Below, one piece after another: positions 3,413-30,040 of a stretch of 32,000 bases of DNA (position 1 is the stretch's first letter; every line of letters begins with the position of its first letter). The notes under the pieces were generated by a model, which saw only the letters and a program-made list of their open reading frames with translations, had not been told where the DNA came from and ran no database searches. The position numbers and the translations under genes were made by a program. The DNA comes from Ruminococcus albus 7 = DSM 20455 (GTDB taxonomy: Bacteria; Bacillota; Clostridia; Oscillospirales; Ruminococcaceae), in contig NC_014833.1 of NCBI RefSeq assembly GCF_000179635.2, forward strand, positions 1,500,001-1,532,000. The letters are read 5' to 3'.

Positions 3413-4810
3413 TTAATATGGCGCTTCGATGTTGGGGTCGGTATAATCGGGGGCGGGAGTTACTACTGGATCCTGGATGCCGGGATCGGGGGTGTTGGGA
3501 TCGTATGGATCGACGTTGCCGCCCTGATCGGAAATATCGGTATCAATAATGCCGGGGTCGGTATTATCGGGGATACCGGTATCTATAACTGAGGGGTCGC
3601 TCCAGGTGGTATCACTTGTCACGGGGTTGCCGTTTGCATCGGTGACGATATCAGCCCAGTCGGTAGATCCTGCCTGACTGGTTGAAGCTTCGGTAGTAGT
3701 CCAGTAGACTGTACCTGAGGTAGTGGTAGTCAACTGAGAAGATGAATCATCCTTGGGACGTTCCTCCTCGATGATATCGCCTACCTGTATAACGCCCCAG
3801 AAGTCATTCTGTTTTACCCATGCTCTGCCGTTGTTTATGGGACGTGCCTGAGAGAACTCACCTGCACGTACTACCTGTTCGCCTGAGAAATCGTAGTAGC
3901 TGTAATAGCCGTCTTTGTAAACGGGCACATAGTCATCACAGAAAAGGTATGGGTGAACAACGTTGGGGTCATCGGTCATCATGCCGTTGTATGCGTTGGG
4001 GTCGCCGTCGCAGATGAAATCAATAACGGTATTGCCGTCGGCATCGAGGTAGCCCCACTTGTCCTCCTCGTTCCTGAAAGCGATGAGGGTAGAGCCTGCG
4101 CCCTTGTATAAAGGAGCGTAGCTGGCGGTATATATCATCTCGGTAAGGAGCTCACCGTTTTTGGCAAGACCGCATAAAGCATCCTCGGGAACGGAAACTT
4201 CAGGATTGCCGTAGTCATCCATTTCCACATTTGCCTCAGTAACGGCTACTGCCTTTTTGCCTGTATACTCAGTAACATTTTTGCTTCCGAGTTTGCCCTC
4301 GAATACCTTCTGTGACTTTATATCAAGGTAGTAAACAGGGGTGGTGTAATCGGTGTGGGCAGGATAAGAGGTCACCTTTTTATCCTTATCCAGAGTGCAG
4401 TACTCGTATTCATTGTTGCGTTCATCGATTATGTTCACAAGTACTATCTCACCGCAGGGGCAAATATAGTAGTCATCGTAGGCAGGCTTTACCACGTAGT
4501 TGCCTGCGTAGTCGATAAGACCGTACTTGCTGTTATACCTGACAACTGAGTAGTTGAGGTATGTACGGTTATCGGCAGTATCGGGGTCTATCCTGCTGGC
4601 ATCGAATGAGATTATATTATCAGCCTGTATAGACGGCTTTATCAGCCAGCTGTATATCTGTTCGGTATCGTTATTTTCGGTGATGTTGAAGTTGTAGGTG
4701 TTTGACATATCGTCGCTGCCGCTGTTTTTGGTTGAACCCGGGAAAGTGCAGCCTGTGAATATCAATGCTGATGCTGCCGCAGCTATGGCACTGCGAAATA
4801 ATTTGTTCAT
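3413..4810 (-). CDS. WG-repeat (KWG/WG_beta_rep-like) lipoprotein with an Asp/Pro/Thr-rich C-terminal tail
   Basis: Start trimmed to the ATG at 4810 behind AGGAGG. Signal peptide plus lipobox MNKLFRSAIAAAASALIFTGC. Repeated motifs KYGLIDYAGNYVVKPAYDD, KWGYLDADGNTVIDF and FWGVIQVGD. The last 100 aa or so are low-complexity D/P/T. Confidence 0.7.
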   Translation of the reverse strand: MNKLFRSAIAAAASALIFTGCTFPGSTKNSGSDDMSNTYNFNITENNDTEQIYSWLIKPSIQADNIISFDASRIDPDTADNRTYLNYSVVRYNSKYGLIDYAGNYVVKPAYDDYYICPCGEIVLVNIIDERNNEYEYCTLDKDKKVTSYPAHTDYTTPVYYLDIKSQKVFEGKLGSKNVTEYTGKKAVAVTEANVEMDDYGNPEVSVPEDALCGLAKNGELLTEMIYTASYAPLYKGAGSTLIAFRNEEDKWGYLDADGNTVIDFICDGDPNAYNGMMTDDPNVVHPYLFCDDYVPVYKDGYYSYYDFSGEQVVRAGEFSQARPINNGRAWVKQNDFWGVIQVGDIIEEERPKDDSSSQLTTTTSGTVYWTTTEASTSQAGSTDWADIVTDANGNPVTSDTTWSDPSVIDTGIPDNTDPGIIDTDISDQGGNVDPYDPNTPDPGIQDPVVTPAPDYTDPNIEAPY

Positions 4811-23999: not shown

Positions 24000-24028
24000 T
24001 TGCAATTCGCGGCTGAGTATGATATAAT
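24000..24028 (+). promoter_or_regulatory. SigA-type promoter (TTGCAA-17-TATAAT) of the ior operon
   Basis: TTGCAAttcgcggctgagtatgaTATAAT. Confidence 0.55.
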
Positions 24029-24121
24029 AAATTTATGTATCTATAAGGTATAATTTATCTTTGACGTATCACACGAAATGAAGGCTGCATAAAGCAGTCC
24101 TGCATGAAAGGAAAGAGAGCT

Positions 24122-25858
24122 ATGAAAAAACTGATGCTTGGTAATGAGGCATTTGCCAGAGGTCTTTATGAGGCGGGCTGTAAGGTCGTTTCTTCTTACC
24201 CGGGTACACCCTCTACCGAGATAACCGAGGCTGCTGCTAAGTATGATGAGATATATGCTGAGTGGGCACCGAATGAGAAAGTCGCTATGGAGGTGGCACT
24301 GGGCGCTTCCATCGCAGGTGTAAGAAGCTTCTGCGGAATGAAGCACGTTGGTCTTAACGTTGCTGCCGATCCGCTGTATACCGCAGGCTATACAGGCGTT
24401 ACAGGCGGTATGGTCATCGCTGTTGCTGATGACCCCGGTATGCATTCTTCACAGAACGAACAGGATTCCCGTCATCACGCTGCGGCTTCAAAGACAATGA
24501 TGATCGAACCCTCCGATTCTGCTGAGTGCAAGGAGTACACAAAGATGGCATTCGAGCTTTCCGAAAAGTTCGATGTGCCTGTTATAGTAAGAATGTCCAC
24601 AAGAGTGGCACATTCACAGTCTGCAGTTGAACTCTGCGACAGGGAAGAGCGCGAGCCTATACCTTACGAGAAGAACGCTGCCAAGTACGTTATGATGCCC
24701 GGCAACGCTATCCGCAGACACCCGATCGTTGAGGACAGGATGAGAGCTATCGCTGAGTACGGCGAGAACTGCCCCCTCAATACAGTTGAGTATAATGATA
24801 CCGAGATCGGTGTTGTTACCGCAGGTATCTGCTACCAGTACGCAAAGGAAGCACTGGGCAACAAGGTAAGCTACCTGAAGCTGGGTATCGTTAACCCCAT
24901 GCCTGTGAATATCATCAAGGACTTCGCTTCAAAGTGCAAGAAGATAATCGTTATCGAGGAACTCGACGACGTTATCGAAACACACTGCAAGAAGAACGGT
25001 ATCGAATGTCAGGGTAAGGAACTCTTCGGCTGGCTGGGTGAGATCAATCAGGTCATCATCAGGGATAAGGTACTGGGTATCAAGCCAGAGTTCGATACAT
25101 TCGAGGACACTGTTCCCGTTAGACCCCCCGTTATGTGTGCAGGCTGCCCTCACAGAGGTTTGTTCTACTGCCTGAGCAAGCTGAAAGTGACTGTATCGGG
25201 CGATATCGGATGCTATACACTGGGTGCTACCGCTCCTCTGTGCGCTATGGATTCCACTATATGCATGGGCGCTTCCATATCCGCACTCCACGGCTACAAC
25301 AAGGCACTGGGCGCTGATGCTGAGAAGAAGTCTGTTGCTGTTATCGGTGATTCCACTTTCATGCACAGCGGTATGACAGGTCTTGTTAATATAGCTTACA
25401 ACGCTACAAATTCCACAGTTATCATACTGGATAACTCCATAACAGGTATGACAGGTCATCAGCAGAACCCCACCACAGGCAAGAACCTCAAGGGCGACCC
25501 TGCTGCTGCTGTAAATCTTGAAGAACTCTGCCACGCTATCGGCATCAAGAGCGTACGCGTAGTTGATCCTTATCACATGGCTGAAACCGAAGCAGTCATC
25601 AAGGAAGAACTTGCAAAGGAAGAACCTTCCGTTATCATTTCAAGAAGACCCTGCGCTCTGCTGAAATACGTTAAGCACAAGCCCGCACTCCACTGCGATC
25701 AGGACAAGTGCGTAGGCTGCAAGCAGTGTCTGAAGATCGGATGTCCGGCAATATCTATCCACGACGGCAAGATGGTCATAGACCATACTCAGTGCGTAGG
25801 CTGCGGTATCTGCACCGAGATGTGCAAGCTGGGCGCTATCAAGGGAAATGAAGAATAA
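24122..25858 (+). CDS. iorA: Indolepyruvate:ferredoxin oxidoreductase, alpha subunit
   Basis: Start trimmed to MKKLMLGNEAFARGLYEAGCKVVSSYPGTPSTEI. TPP-binding GDSTFMHSG. C-terminal 2x[4Fe-4S] CVGCKQCLKIGCP / CVGCGICTEMC. Confidence 0.9.
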   Translation: MKKLMLGNEAFARGLYEAGCKVVSSYPGTPSTEITEAAAKYDEIYAEWAPNEKVAMEVALGASIAGVRSFCGMKHVGLNVAADPLYTAGYTGVTGGMVIAVADDPGMHSSQNEQDSRHHAAASKTMMIEPSDSAECKEYTKMAFELSEKFDVPVIVRMSTRVAHSQSAVELCDREEREPIPYEKNAAKYVMMPGNAIRRHPIVEDRMRAIAEYGENCPLNTVEYNDTEIGVVTAGICYQYAKEALGNKVSYLKLGIVNPMPVNIIKDFASKCKKIIVIEELDDVIETHCKKNGIECQGKELFGWLGEINQVIIRDKVLGIKPEFDTFEDTVPVRPPVMCAGCPHRGLFYCLSKLKVTVSGDIGCYTLGATAPLCAMDSTICMGASISALHGYNKALGADAEKKSVAVIGDSTFMHSGMTGLVNIAYNATNSTVIILDNSITGMTGHQQNPTTGKNLKGDPAAAVNLEELCHAIGIKSVRVVDPYHMAETEAVIKEELAKEEPSVIISRRPCALLKYVKHKPALHCDQDKCVGCKQCLKIGCPAISIHDGKMVIDHTQCVGCGICTEMCKLGAIKGNEE

Positions 25859-25873
25859 CAGTGAGGTAAATAT

Positions 25874-26290
25874 ATGGATTTTGATAATGATGACAGCAAG
25901 GTAGCCGGTACCGTCGGTGCTTTGATAGGTGCAGCACTTGCAATAGGTCTGTGGTGTCTTATAGGGCTTCTTGGCAGAGTGGCTGTGATCGGTGGTGTTG
26001 CACTGTTTTTAGGTGCTTACGGCGGATATTATCTGCTTGGGAAAGGTATGAGCAAGGTAGGACTTATAATCTCGACAGTAATAGTTTTGATATCTGTGTA
26101 CGTGGCTACAAGACTTAACTGGGCTATATCCATTTCAAGAGCAACCGATATGTCGGTCTCAGAGTGCTACAAGATGCTTCCGAAGCTTATCAAATTGGCT
26201 GCAGCATCCGGATCTTTCTATAAGGATCTTGTTGTTGGATACCTGATAACCTTTTTCGGCGGAGTCGTTTTGATGGCAAAGATGAGATGA
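25874..26290 (+). CDS. Small 4-TM membrane protein, paralog 1 (unknown family)
   Basis: GAGG RBS, 15 nt after the iorA stop. Four predicted hydrophobic helices. Shares GALIGA..G.WCLIG.LG...GY.LLG.GMS..G...TR.NWAI...FY.DL.VGY with the next gene. Confidence 0.7.
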   Translation: MDFDNDDSKVAGTVGALIGAALAIGLWCLIGLLGRVAVIGGVALFLGAYGGYYLLGKGMSKVGLIISTVIVLISVYVATRLNWAISISRATDMSVSECYKMLPKLIKLAAASGSFYKDLVVGYLITFFGGVVLMAKMR

Positions 26291-26465
26291 ACTTAAATAC
26301 TGTTACCGGAATTAAGAGTGAATGATGTATATGATCTATACTGCAGTATCCGGATCGGTACCTATGGGCAGTCATTGATATAAATGTCTGCTTTGCGGGA
26401 TCTGAATGTATTTCGGCGATACATACAGAACGGATCTGCATTGGAAAAAATATGAGGATATTAAA

Positions 26466-26879
26466 ATGTATGATAATAAAATAAAAGGGACGATAGGCGC
26501 ACTTATAGGTGCATTCCTTGGAATGGGTGTTTGGTGTCTTATCGGTGCCCTCGGCATTATGGCTGGTCTTGGCGGAGCAGCTATATGTATATGTACCATA
26601 ATGGGGTACAAGCTGCTGGGCGAAGGTATGAGCAGGATAGGTGCAGCAATTGTATTCGTGATAATAGTTGCCACGGTGTATTTTTCCACACGTATGAACT
26701 GGGCGATAGAGCTCCATAAGCTTGCACCCCAGTATTCTCTTGGCAAGTGCTTCAATAAGGTGCTGCGTCTGCTGAAGATGTTCGGCATTGAAGGACGTTT
26801 CTATCTTGACCTGCTCGTAGGTTACATACTTACGATATTAGGTTTCTTCTGGGCAAGAAGAAAATTCCCGAGTCTGTGA
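26466..26879 (+). CDS. Small 4-TM membrane protein, paralog 2 (unknown family)
   Basis: Start trimmed to the ATG at 26466 behind GAGGA. Roughly half of the first 77 aligned residues are identical to paralog 1, counted by eye. Confidence 0.7.
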   Translation: MYDNKIKGTIGALIGAFLGMGVWCLIGALGIMAGLGGAAICICTIMGYKLLGEGMSRIGAAIVFVIIVATVYFSTRMNWAIELHKLAPQYSLGKCFNKVLRLLKMFGIEGRFYLDLLVGYILTILGFFWARRKFPSL

Positions 26880-26940
26880 TATGCGGAACCAAGACGGCGA
26901 TATTAAGATAATATACGTTAACTATAAGGAGTTGTAATAA

Positions 26941-27516
26941 ATGGAAACTAAGTCTATTATGATAGTCGGCGTAGGCGGACAGGGTTCGCTGCTGGCTTCA
27001 AGGATATTAGGTAATGTACTGCTCTCGCAGGGCTTTGATGTAAAGGTCAGCGAGGTACACGGCATGAGCCAGCGCGGCGGCTCGGTAGTTACCTATGTAA
27101 AATACGGCGATAAGGTGTATTCACCAGTTGTTGAAAAGGGCGAGGCTGATATCATCATCAGCTTTGAGACACTTGAGGCTGCAAGATATGTGCAGTACCT
27201 GAAAAAGGGCGGTCATATAGTAACCTCTACCCAGCAGATAGACCCAATGCCCGTTATCAACGGTACTGCTGTATATCCCGATGATATCATCGGCAAGCTG
27301 AAAAAGCAGGGTATCAGCGTTGTTGACGTTGATGCGCTGACACTGGCTGAACAGGCAGGTACAGCTAAGGCTTCAAACGTTGTGCTCATGGGTGTTGTGT
27401 CCATGAAAATGGACTTTTCCGAGGACGTATGGCAGGCAGCACTGGAAAGCTGCGTTCCTGCTAAGTTCCTGGAGCTTAACAAGAAGGCTTTTGCTCTCGG
27501 CAGAGCAGCAGTCTGA
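26941..27516 (+). CDS. iorB: Indolepyruvate:ferredoxin oxidoreductase, beta subunit
   Basis: IMIVGVGGQGSLLASRILG...HGMSQRGGSV is a typical IorB/POR-gamma-like motif. Confidence 0.9.
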   Translation: METKSIMIVGVGGQGSLLASRILGNVLLSQGFDVKVSEVHGMSQRGGSVVTYVKYGDKVYSPVVEKGEADIIISFETLEAARYVQYLKKGGHIVTSTQQIDPMPVINGTAVYPDDIIGKLKKQGISVVDVDALTLAEQAGTAKASNVVLMGVVSMKMDFSEDVWQAALESCVPAKFLELNKKAFALGRAAV

Positions 27517-27742
27517 AAATAATCTATCGGATAAGTGCAGCCGTTGCACGTAACGGCTGTCAGAGTGAACGGCATAAGTTTCATGAGATCAGACCGTCTG
27601 GCTGAACTATAGGGATTATGTCGTTTACTAAAAACCAAAGCGATTTAGCGGTTTAAAATATCAAATTTACAAAGGAAAATATCGGTAATATATGGTATGG
27701 AATGGATATTCGTACATATCTTACCAGAAGGAGTGTGAGCCA

Positions 27743-29056
27743 ATGGCTGAGAAGATCTATTGGAACAAGGATATCGAGACTATGGAACTCGATAAGATGA
27801 AAGCTCTCCAGAGTGAGAGGCTTGTCAAGCAGGTAAGACACGTATGGGATAACGTTCCTTACTACCGTCATCTGATGGAGGAAAAGGGAGTTACTCCCGA
27901 TGATATCAAGGGTATCGACGATCTCCACAAGCTGCCTTTTATCTCTAAGGCTGACCTGAGAGACAATTATCCTGACGGTCTGCTGGCAGTGCCTAAGTCA
28001 GAATGCGTTCGCATACACGCTACCAGCGGTACTACAGGCAAGAGAGCGATTGCTTTCTATACCCAGAACGATGTTGATCTGTGGGAGAACTGCGTTGCCC
28101 GCGCTATCACAGCAGCAGGCGGTACAAAGGATGACGTTGTACACGTAGCATACGGCTACGGACTTTTCACAGGCGGTCTGGGAGTTCACGGAGGTTCTCA
28201 TAAGGTGGGATGTCTGACACTGCCTGTATCCTCAGGCAATACCGAAAGACAGATACAGTTCATGCAGGATCTTGGTTCTACCATACTCTGCTGTACACCT
28301 TCCTATGCGGCATACATAGGCGAAACACTGCAGGAAATGGGACTTACTCCCGATGATATCAAGCTCAAGGCAGGTATCTTCGGTGCTGAGCCCTGGACAG
28401 AGGAGATGCGCAAGCAGATCGAGCAGAGCCTGGGCATAAAGGCTTATGATATCTATGGTCTTACAGAGACTTCCGGTCCCGGTGTGGCTTTTGAATGTGA
28501 AGAGCAGACAGGTATGCATATAAACGAGGATCACTTCATCGCTGAGATAATAGATCCCGAAACCGGTGAAGTTCTTCCCGAGGGCGAAAAGGGCGAGCTG
28601 GTGTTCACAAGTATCACCAAGGAAGCATTCCCCCTGCTTAGATACCGCACAAGGGATATATGCATACTCAACCGCAAAAAATGTTCCTGCGGCAGAACAC
28701 TCATCAAGATGTGTAAGCCTATGGGCAGAAGCGATGATATGCTGATAATCAAGGGCGTAAATGTATTCCCGTCCCAGATAGAAACTGTACTGCTGAAGGA
28801 CTTCAAGGCACAGCCCAACTATCAGATCGTAGTTGACAGAATAGGTAATGCTGATACCTTTGAGATCAAGGTAGAACTGACAGACGATATGATCGGTGAT
28901 ACCATAAAGTCCGTATCCGAGCTTGAAAAGAAGCTAAGCGCTGATATCGTACAGATACTCGGCATAAAGGCTAAGATAAGCCTTGTTGAGCCTAAGAGCA
29001 TCCCGCGTTCCGAGGGCAAGGCTGTAAGAGTTATCGACAAGAGGAAACTGGTATGA
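27743..29056 (+). CDS. paaK: Phenylacetate-CoA ligase family protein
   Basis: Start trimmed to MAEKIYWNKDIETM behind GAAGGAG. AMP-binding HATSGTTGK and YGLTE. C-terminal PaaK-type domain. Confidence 0.9.
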   Translation: MAEKIYWNKDIETMELDKMKALQSERLVKQVRHVWDNVPYYRHLMEEKGVTPDDIKGIDDLHKLPFISKADLRDNYPDGLLAVPKSECVRIHATSGTTGKRAIAFYTQNDVDLWENCVARAITAAGGTKDDVVHVAYGYGLFTGGLGVHGGSHKVGCLTLPVSSGNTERQIQFMQDLGSTILCCTPSYAAYIGETLQEMGLTPDDIKLKAGIFGAEPWTEEMRKQIEQSLGIKAYDIYGLTETSGPGVAFECEEQTGMHINEDHFIAEIIDPETGEVLPEGEKGELVFTSITKEAFPLLRYRTRDICILNRKKCSCGRTLIKMCKPMGRSDDMLIIKGVNVFPSQIETVLLKDFKAQPNYQIVVDRIGNADTFEIKVELTDDMIGDTIKSVSELEKKLSADIVQILGIKAKISLVEPKSIPRSEGKAVRVIDKRKLV

Positions 29057-29556
29057 GTTGTCTTGGTGTGCTTTTTGCAGTTCCCGAAGATGTTGTCAGA
29101 AAACTCGGAGATATGCCGCTGGAAGAACGTCCCGGATATATATCCGAGGAACTGGAAGATGAGTATTTTGAGGAATATCCCGAGCGCACATACGAACTTG
29201 ACAAGTCATGGGACGCTATGCACCGCCTGCTGACAGACGGTACGCTTTGCTTTGGCGGTGAAGGACCTCTGGCAAAGGCTGTTCTCGGCGGTGAGGTGCT
29301 GTACTTCGATGATGACCACGATGATTACATCATAACAGCGAAAACTCCGGACGAAGTCAGAAAAGTCTATGAAGCTTTACTTGGTCTTGAAGACAGTGAT
29401 ATCAAGCGCAGGTACTTTGCTATACCTGCCGATGAGTACGAAGACAAGGGCGAAGAAGACTTTGAGTATACTCTGGAATATCTGCAGGATAGTCTGAGTT
29501 TCTGGAGATATGCGGCTGAACATGGTCTGTGGGTGCTTTTTACGGCCGACCAATAG
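29053..29556 (+). CDS. yfbM: YfbM (DUF1877) family protein
   Basis: 167 aa. ELDKSWDAMHRLLTDG, PLAKAVLGG and a C-terminal LWVLFTAD line up with E. coli YfbM as I recall it. ATG overlaps the paaK TGA (ATGA). Confidence 0.75.
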   Translation: MSCLGVLFAVPEDVVRKLGDMPLEERPGYISEELEDEYFEEYPERTYELDKSWDAMHRLLTDGTLCFGGEGPLAKAVLGGEVLYFDDDHDDYIITAKTPDEVRKVYEALLGLEDSDIKRRYFAIPADEYEDKGEEDFEYTLEYLQDSLSFWRYAAEHGLWVLFTADQ

Positions 29557-29605: not shown

Positions 29606-30040
29606 ATGACAATAAAGCAGTTATCTATATTTGTTGAAAACAAGCCCGGCAGAATGTCGGACGTTACACATACACTTAAAGACGGCAATATAAATATACG
29701 TGCGATAACTACTGCTGACAGCAGTGATTTCGGTATTTTAAGACTTATCGTTGACGATACCGACAAGGCTATCGAGTGCCTGAAAAAAGCAGATTATCTC
29801 GTCAAGATGACAAACGTTATAGCCGTTACTGCTGAGGACAAGCCCGGCGGAATGGCAGCTATAATGAAGACCCTCTACAAGGCTAACATAAGCGTTGAGT
29901 ATATGTACTCCGCATTCCTTAATCCCTCTGATGTTACAGCCTGCCTGATACTTCGCGTTGACAGCAACGAAAATGCTATCGAGGCGCTGACCGATGCAGG
30001 TTTCAAGCTGCTTTCTGCTGATGATCTGGCAAAGTTCTGA
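29606..30040 (+). CDS. Tandem ACT-domain protein (the type commonly encoded next to paaK)
   Basis: QLSIFVENKPGRMSDVT... and a second VIAVTAEDKPGGMAAIM... ACT beta-alpha-beta starts. Confidence 0.85.
   Translation: MTIKQLSIFVENKPGRMSDVTHTLKDGNINIRAITTADSSDFGILRLIVDDTDKAIECLKKADYLVKMTNVIAVTAEDKPGGMAAIMKTLYKANISVEYMYSAFLNPSDVTACLILRVDSNENAIEALTDAGFKLLSADDLAKF

Follow-up and report, generated by a model that had tools for sequence, protein, structure and literature searches.

In the genome of Ruminococcus albus 7 = DSM 20455 (assembly GCF_000179635.2, contig NC_014833.1), the genes for the two subunits of an indolepyruvate:ferredoxin oxidoreductase (IOR), iorA and iorB, lie 1,082 nucleotides (nt) apart, and the interval holds two genes for small membrane proteins, here called TM1 and TM2 (Table 1). 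They were studied in a stretch of 32,000 nt (positions 1,500,001 to 1,532,000 of the forward strand), hereafter the window. An earlier note, made from this sequence only, described the two genes as tandem paralogs for proteins with four transmembrane (4-TM) helices, of a family that it did not recognise, and proposed that a membrane component had been recruited into the operon to serve the IOR as a channel, a membrane tether or a coupling subunit. The descriptive part of that note stands: both open reading frames (ORFs) are there, their products are 47% identical (BLASTP, 58/124 residues, E 6e-38, far beyond chance), the four motifs quoted as shared are all found in TM1 and TM2, and a model of TM1 shows four helices. 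The functional proposal fares differently, as discussed below.

The two genes are well diverged at the DNA level, so that their duplication cannot be recent. Between the stop codon of iorA and the start of TM1 lie 15 nt, again as noted before, and both genes are preceded at 8-9 nt by a ribosome-binding site of the GAGG type. A longer alternative frame exists for TM2 (157 amino acids (aa), from 26406), but the start adopted here is backed by a 137-aa ortholog, P0182, with 74% identity. A scan for terminators over 25859-26940 gave nothing convincing, only weak stems with three GC pairs inside coding sequences, which agrees with the earlier claim that no obvious terminator precedes iorB. In the spacer between TM1 and TM2 no Rfam match was found (folding z-score -1.37), around the insert there are no meaningful flanking direct or inverted repeats of the kind that would mark a mobile element, and the ORF list and Pfam scan of the window contain no toxin, bacteriocin or phage gene near the insert.

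Table 1. Features of the ior operon in the window. Expression is given in normalised units for monoculture / co-culture (Greening et al. 2019, PMC6776011, Table S7).
Feature	Coordinates	Strand	Expression	Remarks
Promoter-like site, TTGCAA-17-TATAAT with TG extension	24000-24028	+		upstream of iorA; 10/12 hexamer positions match
iorA, IOR alpha subunit (Rumal_1327)	24104-25858	+	152 / 191	TIGR03336 700 bits, cut-off 651; Pfam POR_N, TPP_enzyme_C, Fer4
TM1 (Rumal_1328), 138-aa glycine-rich four-TM membrane protein	25874-26290	+	127.5 / 168.3	TM1-type member of the ior-linked clade
TM1-TM2 spacer, 175 nt	26291-26465	+		no recognised element
TM2 (Rumal_1329), 137-aa paralog of TM1	26466-26879	+	125.3 / 160.2	separate TM2-type lineage
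iorB, IOR beta subunit (Rumal_1330)	26941-27516	+	302 / 334	NF005325 277 bits, cut-off 230; Pfam POR
Phenylacetate-CoA ligase family gene, paaK (Rumal_1331)	27692-29056	+	289 / 284	TIGR02155 559 bits, below the 646-bit cut-off; Pfam AMP-binding, AMP-binding_C_2
DUF1877/YfbM-like gene (Rumal_1332)	29053-29556	+	345 / 322	PF08974, E 3e-29
ACT-domain pair protein (Rumal_1333)	29606-30040	+	484 / 422	last gene of the operon; PF19571, E 6e-28

The genes that flank the insert are ordinary and resemble those of the canonical iorAB and iorAB-paaK-ACT operons of anaerobes; what differs is the spacing. That iorA and iorB are normally adjacent, as the earlier note had it, is illustrated by a second pair in the same genome (C1:352805-355163; Rumal_0332 and Rumal_0333), which has a gap of 13 nt and no insert, and by G420, a relative from the same genus, with 37 nt (genome labels of this kind are those of the present analysis). 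The second pair is 42% and 32% identical to the pair in the window and is expressed at 70-130 normalised units. As to the ligase gene, its ORF as listed probably begins too early, since the alignments with homologs all begin at residue 17-18, and the ATG at 27743 is the likelier start.

Published RNA-seq data of R. albus 7 give expression values gene by gene (source as in Table 1), and their gene order follows that of the window throughout: a flavodoxin, two FeoA, FeoB, two hypothetical proteins, IorA, two hypothetical proteins, the iorB product (as "pyruvate/ketoisovalerate oxidoreductase catalytic domain"), phenylacetate-CoA ligase, a hypothetical protein, ACT, a hypothetical protein, ferredoxin and FolC. 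It is on this correspondence that TM1 is equated with Rumal_1328 and TM2 with Rumal_1329. Both are found at about 0.8 times the level of iorA and change in parallel with it in co-culture (1.32-fold for TM1 and 1.28-fold for TM2, 1.26-fold for iorA), so the genes are not silent, a state that the earlier note itself had named as speaking against its proposal. TM1 and TM2, embedded in the operon, are transcribed together with iorA and iorB, and the data do not point to separate transcription, which the earlier note had likewise named; the two genes upstream of iorA, Rumal_1325 and Rumal_1326, reach 1-2 units only (PMC6776011). The genes from iorB to ACT, including the DUF1877 gene, lie some 2-3 times above iorA, TM1 and TM2, with a roughly two-fold step at iorB, and their response to co-culture is set apart as well (0.87-1.11 versus 1.26-1.32). 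This step at the TM2-iorB junction could reflect transcription that starts internally, RNA processing or transcripts of unequal stability.

Linkage to iorB and relationships of the 4-TM genes

Homologous inserts in the iorA-iorB spacers of relatives, for which the earlier note had advised a survey, recur in many genomes. In a sample of 300 genomes from the same taxonomic family, 40 have a homolog of the 4-TM genes and 174 have IorB, and seven of these (G183, G207, G037, G081, G266, G033 and G068) have the homolog as the immediate upstream neighbour of iorB. Among the named genomes, nine of 17 loci show the order iorA-4TM-iorB-ligase-(DUF1877)-ACT. Within the genus IorB occurs in 37 of 39 species and the 4-TM gene in 19; apart from the window genome, in 16 of the 18 other carriers the gene precedes iorB by 46-1,816 nt and has the same orientation, and the remaining two are a gene at a contig edge and a frameshifted remnant elsewhere in the genome (G454). 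Two copies are found, within the genus, only in the window genome, and also in G037, which belongs to another genus.

In a maximum-likelihood tree of the domain, a branch with support of 91/80 sets all the ior-linked genes, together with four non-linked ones, apart from the rest, and the core clade is recovered with support of 99/97. As the ior-linked genes make up one clade, their recurrence in different genera is explained by inheritance and not by repeated recruitment, and the sequences are consistent with a single ancient capture of a 4-TM gene into the ior operon. TM2 groups with P0182, the sole occupant of the junction in another Ruminococcus population (IorB 98% identical), and this TM2-type lineage is sister to the crown group that contains TM1. 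The duplication is therefore old, or else the second copy arrived by recombination.

The four non-linked orthologs are nested in the clade, are 53-60% identical to TM1 and reside in unrelated strings of genes on the same strand: one after argH, one between holA and a Toprim/DUF4093 gene (rnmV) that is followed by pepF, one between a methyltransferase gene and hslO-ddl, and one after a radical-SAM gene. Homologs scattered over genomes with no link to ior were the second circumstance that the earlier note had held against its proposal, and here the outcome is divided: unlinked members exist, both these relocated ones and more distant ones, but so does a clade that is linked to ior. The ior-linked member of G266 (L014:1081-2025) is unusual in having 314 aa, with a low-complexity N-terminus rich in Q, G, Y and N and a large acidic insertion in the loop between the third and fourth TM helices; an insertion in this loop is also present in its sister from G081.

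Variable contents of the iorA-iorB junction

The iorA-iorB junction is a variable slot, and genomes with nearly the same IorB differ in what they carry there (Table 2). The canonical spacing is 13-37 nt, whereas other cargo in the slots of relatives reaches about 2.4 kb.

Table 2. Contents of the iorA-iorB slot in the window and in relatives. IorB identities are relative to the IorB of the window.
Genome	IorB identity	Slot content
Window	100%	TM1 + TM2
KH2T6	98%	4-TM + 215-aa multi-TM protein
AR67	98%	4-TM + 142-aa acidic soluble protein
L069	98%	TM2-type only
RUI259	97%	4-TM only
G450	95%	acidic protein + 228-aa multi-TM protein, no 4-TM
R. albus 8	94%	4-TM + 198-aa + 158-aa membrane proteins
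G439	~94%	4-TM + 215-aa protein + two 158-aa gene copies + iorB fragment
G451	93%	198-aa membrane protein only
G444	89%	221-aa membrane protein only
G420	87%	empty, 37 nt

The acidic slot protein of AR67 and G450, about 140 aa long, is without a Pfam match; a paralog of it with 44% identity is encoded in the R. albus 7 genome outside the window (C1:130445-130804). The 215-aa protein of KH2T6 (L034:6454-7101) matches Pfam Sulfate_transp with 24.8 bits (cut-off 23.2) over 100 of the 380 model positions, which is probably an artefact of its hydrophobic segments. None of the other slot proteins matches the PADLOC or PHROG models.

The 4-TM genes of the slot are under purifying selection, with ratios of nonsynonymous to synonymous substitution rates (dN/dS) of 0.10-0.22 at dS values of 1.0-1.7. 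When the same genomes are compared, iorA and iorB on either side give a dN/dS of about 0.025 and a dS of 0.43-0.59. Either the inserts evolve much faster than their flanks, or they have a history separate from them.

For one type of cargo the mode of entry has left traces. The 158-aa genes of R. albus 8 and G439 open with a near-exact copy of the ribosome-binding site and the first nine or so codons of iorB, and the sequence common to their starts and that of iorB is AAGGAGTTGTAATATAAATGGAAAC.A.ATCTGTAAT. The duplicates are located at L043:7060-7115 and, in a related metagenome-assembled genome, at L035:3870-3925 and 4460-4515, and in G439 the gene is present in two tandem copies, each with such a junction, with a fragment of iorB in between. 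These copies of the iorB start at the junctions indicate that the 158-aa cassette type was installed or amplified through duplication of the iorB translation start. Around TM1 and TM2 of the window no comparable repeat was found.

The DUF1877/YfbM gene is a second variable insertion in the ior-paaK operon, between the ligase and ACT genes. It is carried by KH2T6, AR67, RUI259 and L069, the last of which has an additional 119-aa gene downstream of it, and it is missing between paaK and ACT in R. albus 8 (L043) and at loci L035, L039 and L045. A limited term search of the literature found no support for DUF1877 as an immunity protein.

A glycine-rich membrane domain of Clostridia

TM1 and TM2 gave nothing above threshold against the Pfam, NCBIfam, PHROG and PADLOC models, and the proteins closest to them, from Ruminococcus and Oscillospiraceae, are annotated as "hypothetical proteins". 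Both are members of a glycine-rich family of 4-TM domains in Clostridia that has no name and for which neither Pfam nor NCBIfam has a model; that the family is an unfamiliar one had thus been judged correctly. A profile built from 14 sequences and searched against 1.84 billion representative proteins retrieved 1,427 clusters (50% identity) at E<=1e-3 and 685 at E<=1e-10, and both window proteins match it significantly across the whole domain of about 135 residues. Some proteins, of 138-200 aa, consist of the domain alone; most commonly it forms the C-terminus of proteins of about 315 aa; and a third group, of 370-740 aa and without Pfam domains, has it at the N-terminus. Forms of intermediate length have an N-terminal zinc ribbon (PF13240 or PF13248), and zinc-ribbon matches occur in 25 of 74 family members. 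Distant members with a zinc ribbon or of the long form are encoded by monocistronic genes unlinked to ior, and neither the clustering of flanking ORFs nor annotated contigs revealed recurrent neighbours of the long and intermediate forms.

In the AlphaFold2 model of TM1 (predicted local distance difference test (pLDDT) 83, predicted template modelling score (pTM) 0.75), the helices 9-32, 37-56, 61-90 and 112-137 form the four TM helices, and a short helix (95-108) lies between the third and the fourth. The same helix pattern is seen in the model of a long form (pLDDT 85), where an N-domain of about 115 residues and a zinc ribbon precede the 4-TM bundle. This N-domain matches class I chaperones of type III secretion and YbjN (TM-score 0.53-0.58 on the target), namely ExsC, SchA, SicP, SycE and CesT (probability 1.0, E from 3e-3). 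The fold is absent from TM1 and TM2, and the likeness bears only on how the membrane module is used elsewhere. Relative to the zinc-ribbon membrane proteins of Clostridia, with which they share a homologous 4-TM domain (profile E down to 1e-23) and the same glycines, TM1 and TM2 differ in having neither zinc ribbon nor chaperone-like domain and in being embedded in an operon instead of monocistronic.

The residues invariant in the family (G15, A16, G19, G41 and G51) are located on the first two TM helices; conserved residues are almost all glycine or small, and no charge within the membrane is conserved across the family. Judged from these sequences, the domain looks unlike a carrier-type transporter and may be a self-associating membrane module. 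As the zinc ribbons of the family are cytoplasmic, the N-terminus of the 4-TM domain is probably in the cytoplasm as well, and the short forms would then expose to it only some eight N-terminal residues, a loop of five residues and a short tail.

Comparison with solved folds points to no relative: the best Foldseek hits of the TM1 model have E 1.1 (PDB) and 0.42 (viral structures), with no resembling fold, and the family profile has no match among PDB sequences at E<=10. Two known systems deserve mention all the same. FUSC_2 (PF13515), an aromatic-acid exporter domain, gives sub-threshold matches in 29 of 74 members (best E 2.9e-4; TM1 itself 16 bits), none of which attains the cut-off of 25.6 bits. 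When the family was aligned with 16 FUSC_2 domains from Clostridia genomes, hhalign returned a probability of 17% over 30 columns, that is, one glycine-rich helix with the motif K/R-x-x-G-T-x-G-x-x-x-G in common. Kinship was rejected on this low probability and on the absence of a structural match, neither ALMT nor FUSC-type structures being found by Foldseek; helix number and protein size differ too. Paired SMR proteins are encoded by tandem genes for 4-TM proteins of about 110 aa that form heterodimers, and TM1 and TM2 are alike in being small four-TM proteins encoded by tandem paralogous genes. However, they have no match to Pfam SMR (Multi_Drug_Res) or, by Foldseek, to EmrE-type structures, their first TM helices contain no acidic residue and hence no embedded Glu, and both have a balanced Lys/Arg pattern and not the opposite biases of such pairs.

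Possible roles of TM1 and TM2

The reading I favour, with moderate confidence, is that TM1 and TM2 are expressed and selectively maintained accessory membrane passengers of the ior-paaK transcript, lodged in a strain-variable slot, and that they form an oligomerising glycine-zipper module independent of the IOR. An ancestor of the R. albus group would have captured a short 4-TM form, without cytoplasmic domain, into the iorA-iorB junction, which from then on would have served as a promoterless cargo slot, its contents being transcribed from the ior promoter. Genes in the slot could subsequently have undergone duplication, exchange or loss, gained unrelated neighbours that encode small membrane proteins, or been transferred to junctions within other operons. 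The 4-TM domain of most relatives would hold two cytoplasmic parts at the membrane, a zinc ribbon and a chaperone-like domain that binds peptides; the short forms, which lack both, would supply nothing but the membrane portion, with TM1 and TM2 probably assembling into homo- or hetero-oligomers. The two proteins would be passengers and neither subunits nor obligatory partners of the IOR, and their role may be a general envelope function that does not depend on it.

Several observations weigh against this interpretation. The position upstream of iorB is kept not only by the 16 other carriers in the genus, but also in several GTDB genera, with IorA identities falling to about 72%, and such long retention next to iorB could mean that the benefit is tied to the pathway. 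The cargo consists mostly of membrane proteins, which could point to in-situ replacement by functional analogues rather than to random cargo. In addition, growth and cellulolysis of R. albus respond to external phenylacetate and phenylpropionate (Stack 1983; Hungate & Stack 1982, both as cited in PMC6368962), and an uptake function would therefore make physiological sense.

The last point leads to the first of the roles proposed in the earlier note, an arylacetate or aromatic-acid channel, in which a glycine-zipper pore of TM1 and TM2 would pass phenylacetate, indoleacetate or phenylpropionate and so supply the PaaK-IOR route or relieve it of its products; this route can operate in the reductive direction, from arylacetate to aromatic amino acid. 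Co-transcription with iorA, iorB and the ligase gene would suit such a channel, as would the conserved position, the response to the external acids and the glycine-rich first two TM helices, since helices of this kind are typical of channels; the sub-threshold FUSC_2 matches could be added, were it not that they collapse in the profile-profile comparison. However, the TM1 model has no structural match among transporters or channels, the membrane helices are devoid of conserved polar or charged residues, the gene is missing in about half of the genus, including species with an 87-95% identical IorB, and nested orthologs sit in arg, holA and hslO contexts. Moreover, most members of the family are fused to zinc-ribbon or chaperone-like domains and have no metabolic neighbours. 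Apart from its position in the operon the channel is unsupported by sequence, structural or comparative evidence, and I regard it as unlikely. Much less likely still is a membrane tether or coupling subunit, by which the 4-TM proteins would dock IorAB or its ferredoxin at the membrane. The genes do lie between both subunit genes, with expression similar to that of iorA, and in the long-form relatives the TM domain appears to anchor a cytoplasmic domain of protein-binding type; but precisely this domain is absent from the short forms, which would offer almost nothing to the cytoplasm, and the same enzyme occurs without a 4-TM gene, as does the paralogous iorAB pair of this genome. An extra subunit should co-occur with this type of iorAB, and this test failed, as G450 and G451 (IorB 93-95% identical) have no 4-TM gene in the slot. 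Together with the relocated orthologs in unrelated gene strings, the distant family members unlinked to ior, the variable slot, the dN/dS and dS values far above those of iorA and iorB, and the many species of the genus without the gene, this argues against recruitment for the function of the IOR in any of the three forms proposed earlier.

Alternatively, the slot may hold strain-specific protective cargo, that is, small membrane proteins of an immunity or exclusion type (for example against bacteriocins or phages) that exploit a steadily transcribed operon, which would explain both the rapid turnover and the fast evolution. In line with this, the slot is hypervariable between near-identical flanks, its genes exceed the flanks in dN/dS and dS, small multi-TM proteins are mixed with a small acidic soluble protein, and the 158-aa cassettes are tandemly amplified. 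However, the PADLOC and PHROG models remain unmatched, no toxin, bacteriocin or phage gene is near, dN/dS is well under 1, and genes of the wider family are conserved and stand alone, surrounded by housekeeping genes. I regard such a role as improbable. A farther-reaching form of the passenger reading, which I put forward tentatively and as the less probable outcome, is that the R. albus group has at this junction a dedicated expression site, without a promoter of its own, where cassettes for small membrane proteins are taken in and reshuffled, at least one type having been installed by duplication of the ribosome-binding site and first nine or so codons of iorB. It would resemble a miniature cassette array that needs no recombinase and supplies strain-specific envelope functions.

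It is known that operons can harbour accessory genes and that conserved flanks can enclose hypervariable loci. To my knowledge, the subunit genes of a heterodimeric enzyme are rarely separated by kilobases of strain-variable cargo, and a limited term search of the literature found no earlier report of such a slot inside an enzyme operon. The R. albus locus indicates that the junction in the operon of a heterodimeric enzyme can serve as a stable site for the landing and expression of small membrane-protein genes. For annotation, it follows that a position in an ior-paaK operon is not evidence for an arylacetate transporter or a subunit of the IOR. If the channel should nevertheless prove true, TM1 and TM2 would provide a route of uptake for phenylacetate and phenylpropionate, growth factors of a major cellulose degrader of the rumen. 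I know of no member of the 4-TM family that has been studied, and the present analysis flags a sizeable, undescribed family of membrane domains, with a recurrent architecture in which a chaperone-like domain and a zinc ribbon are joined to the 4-TM module.

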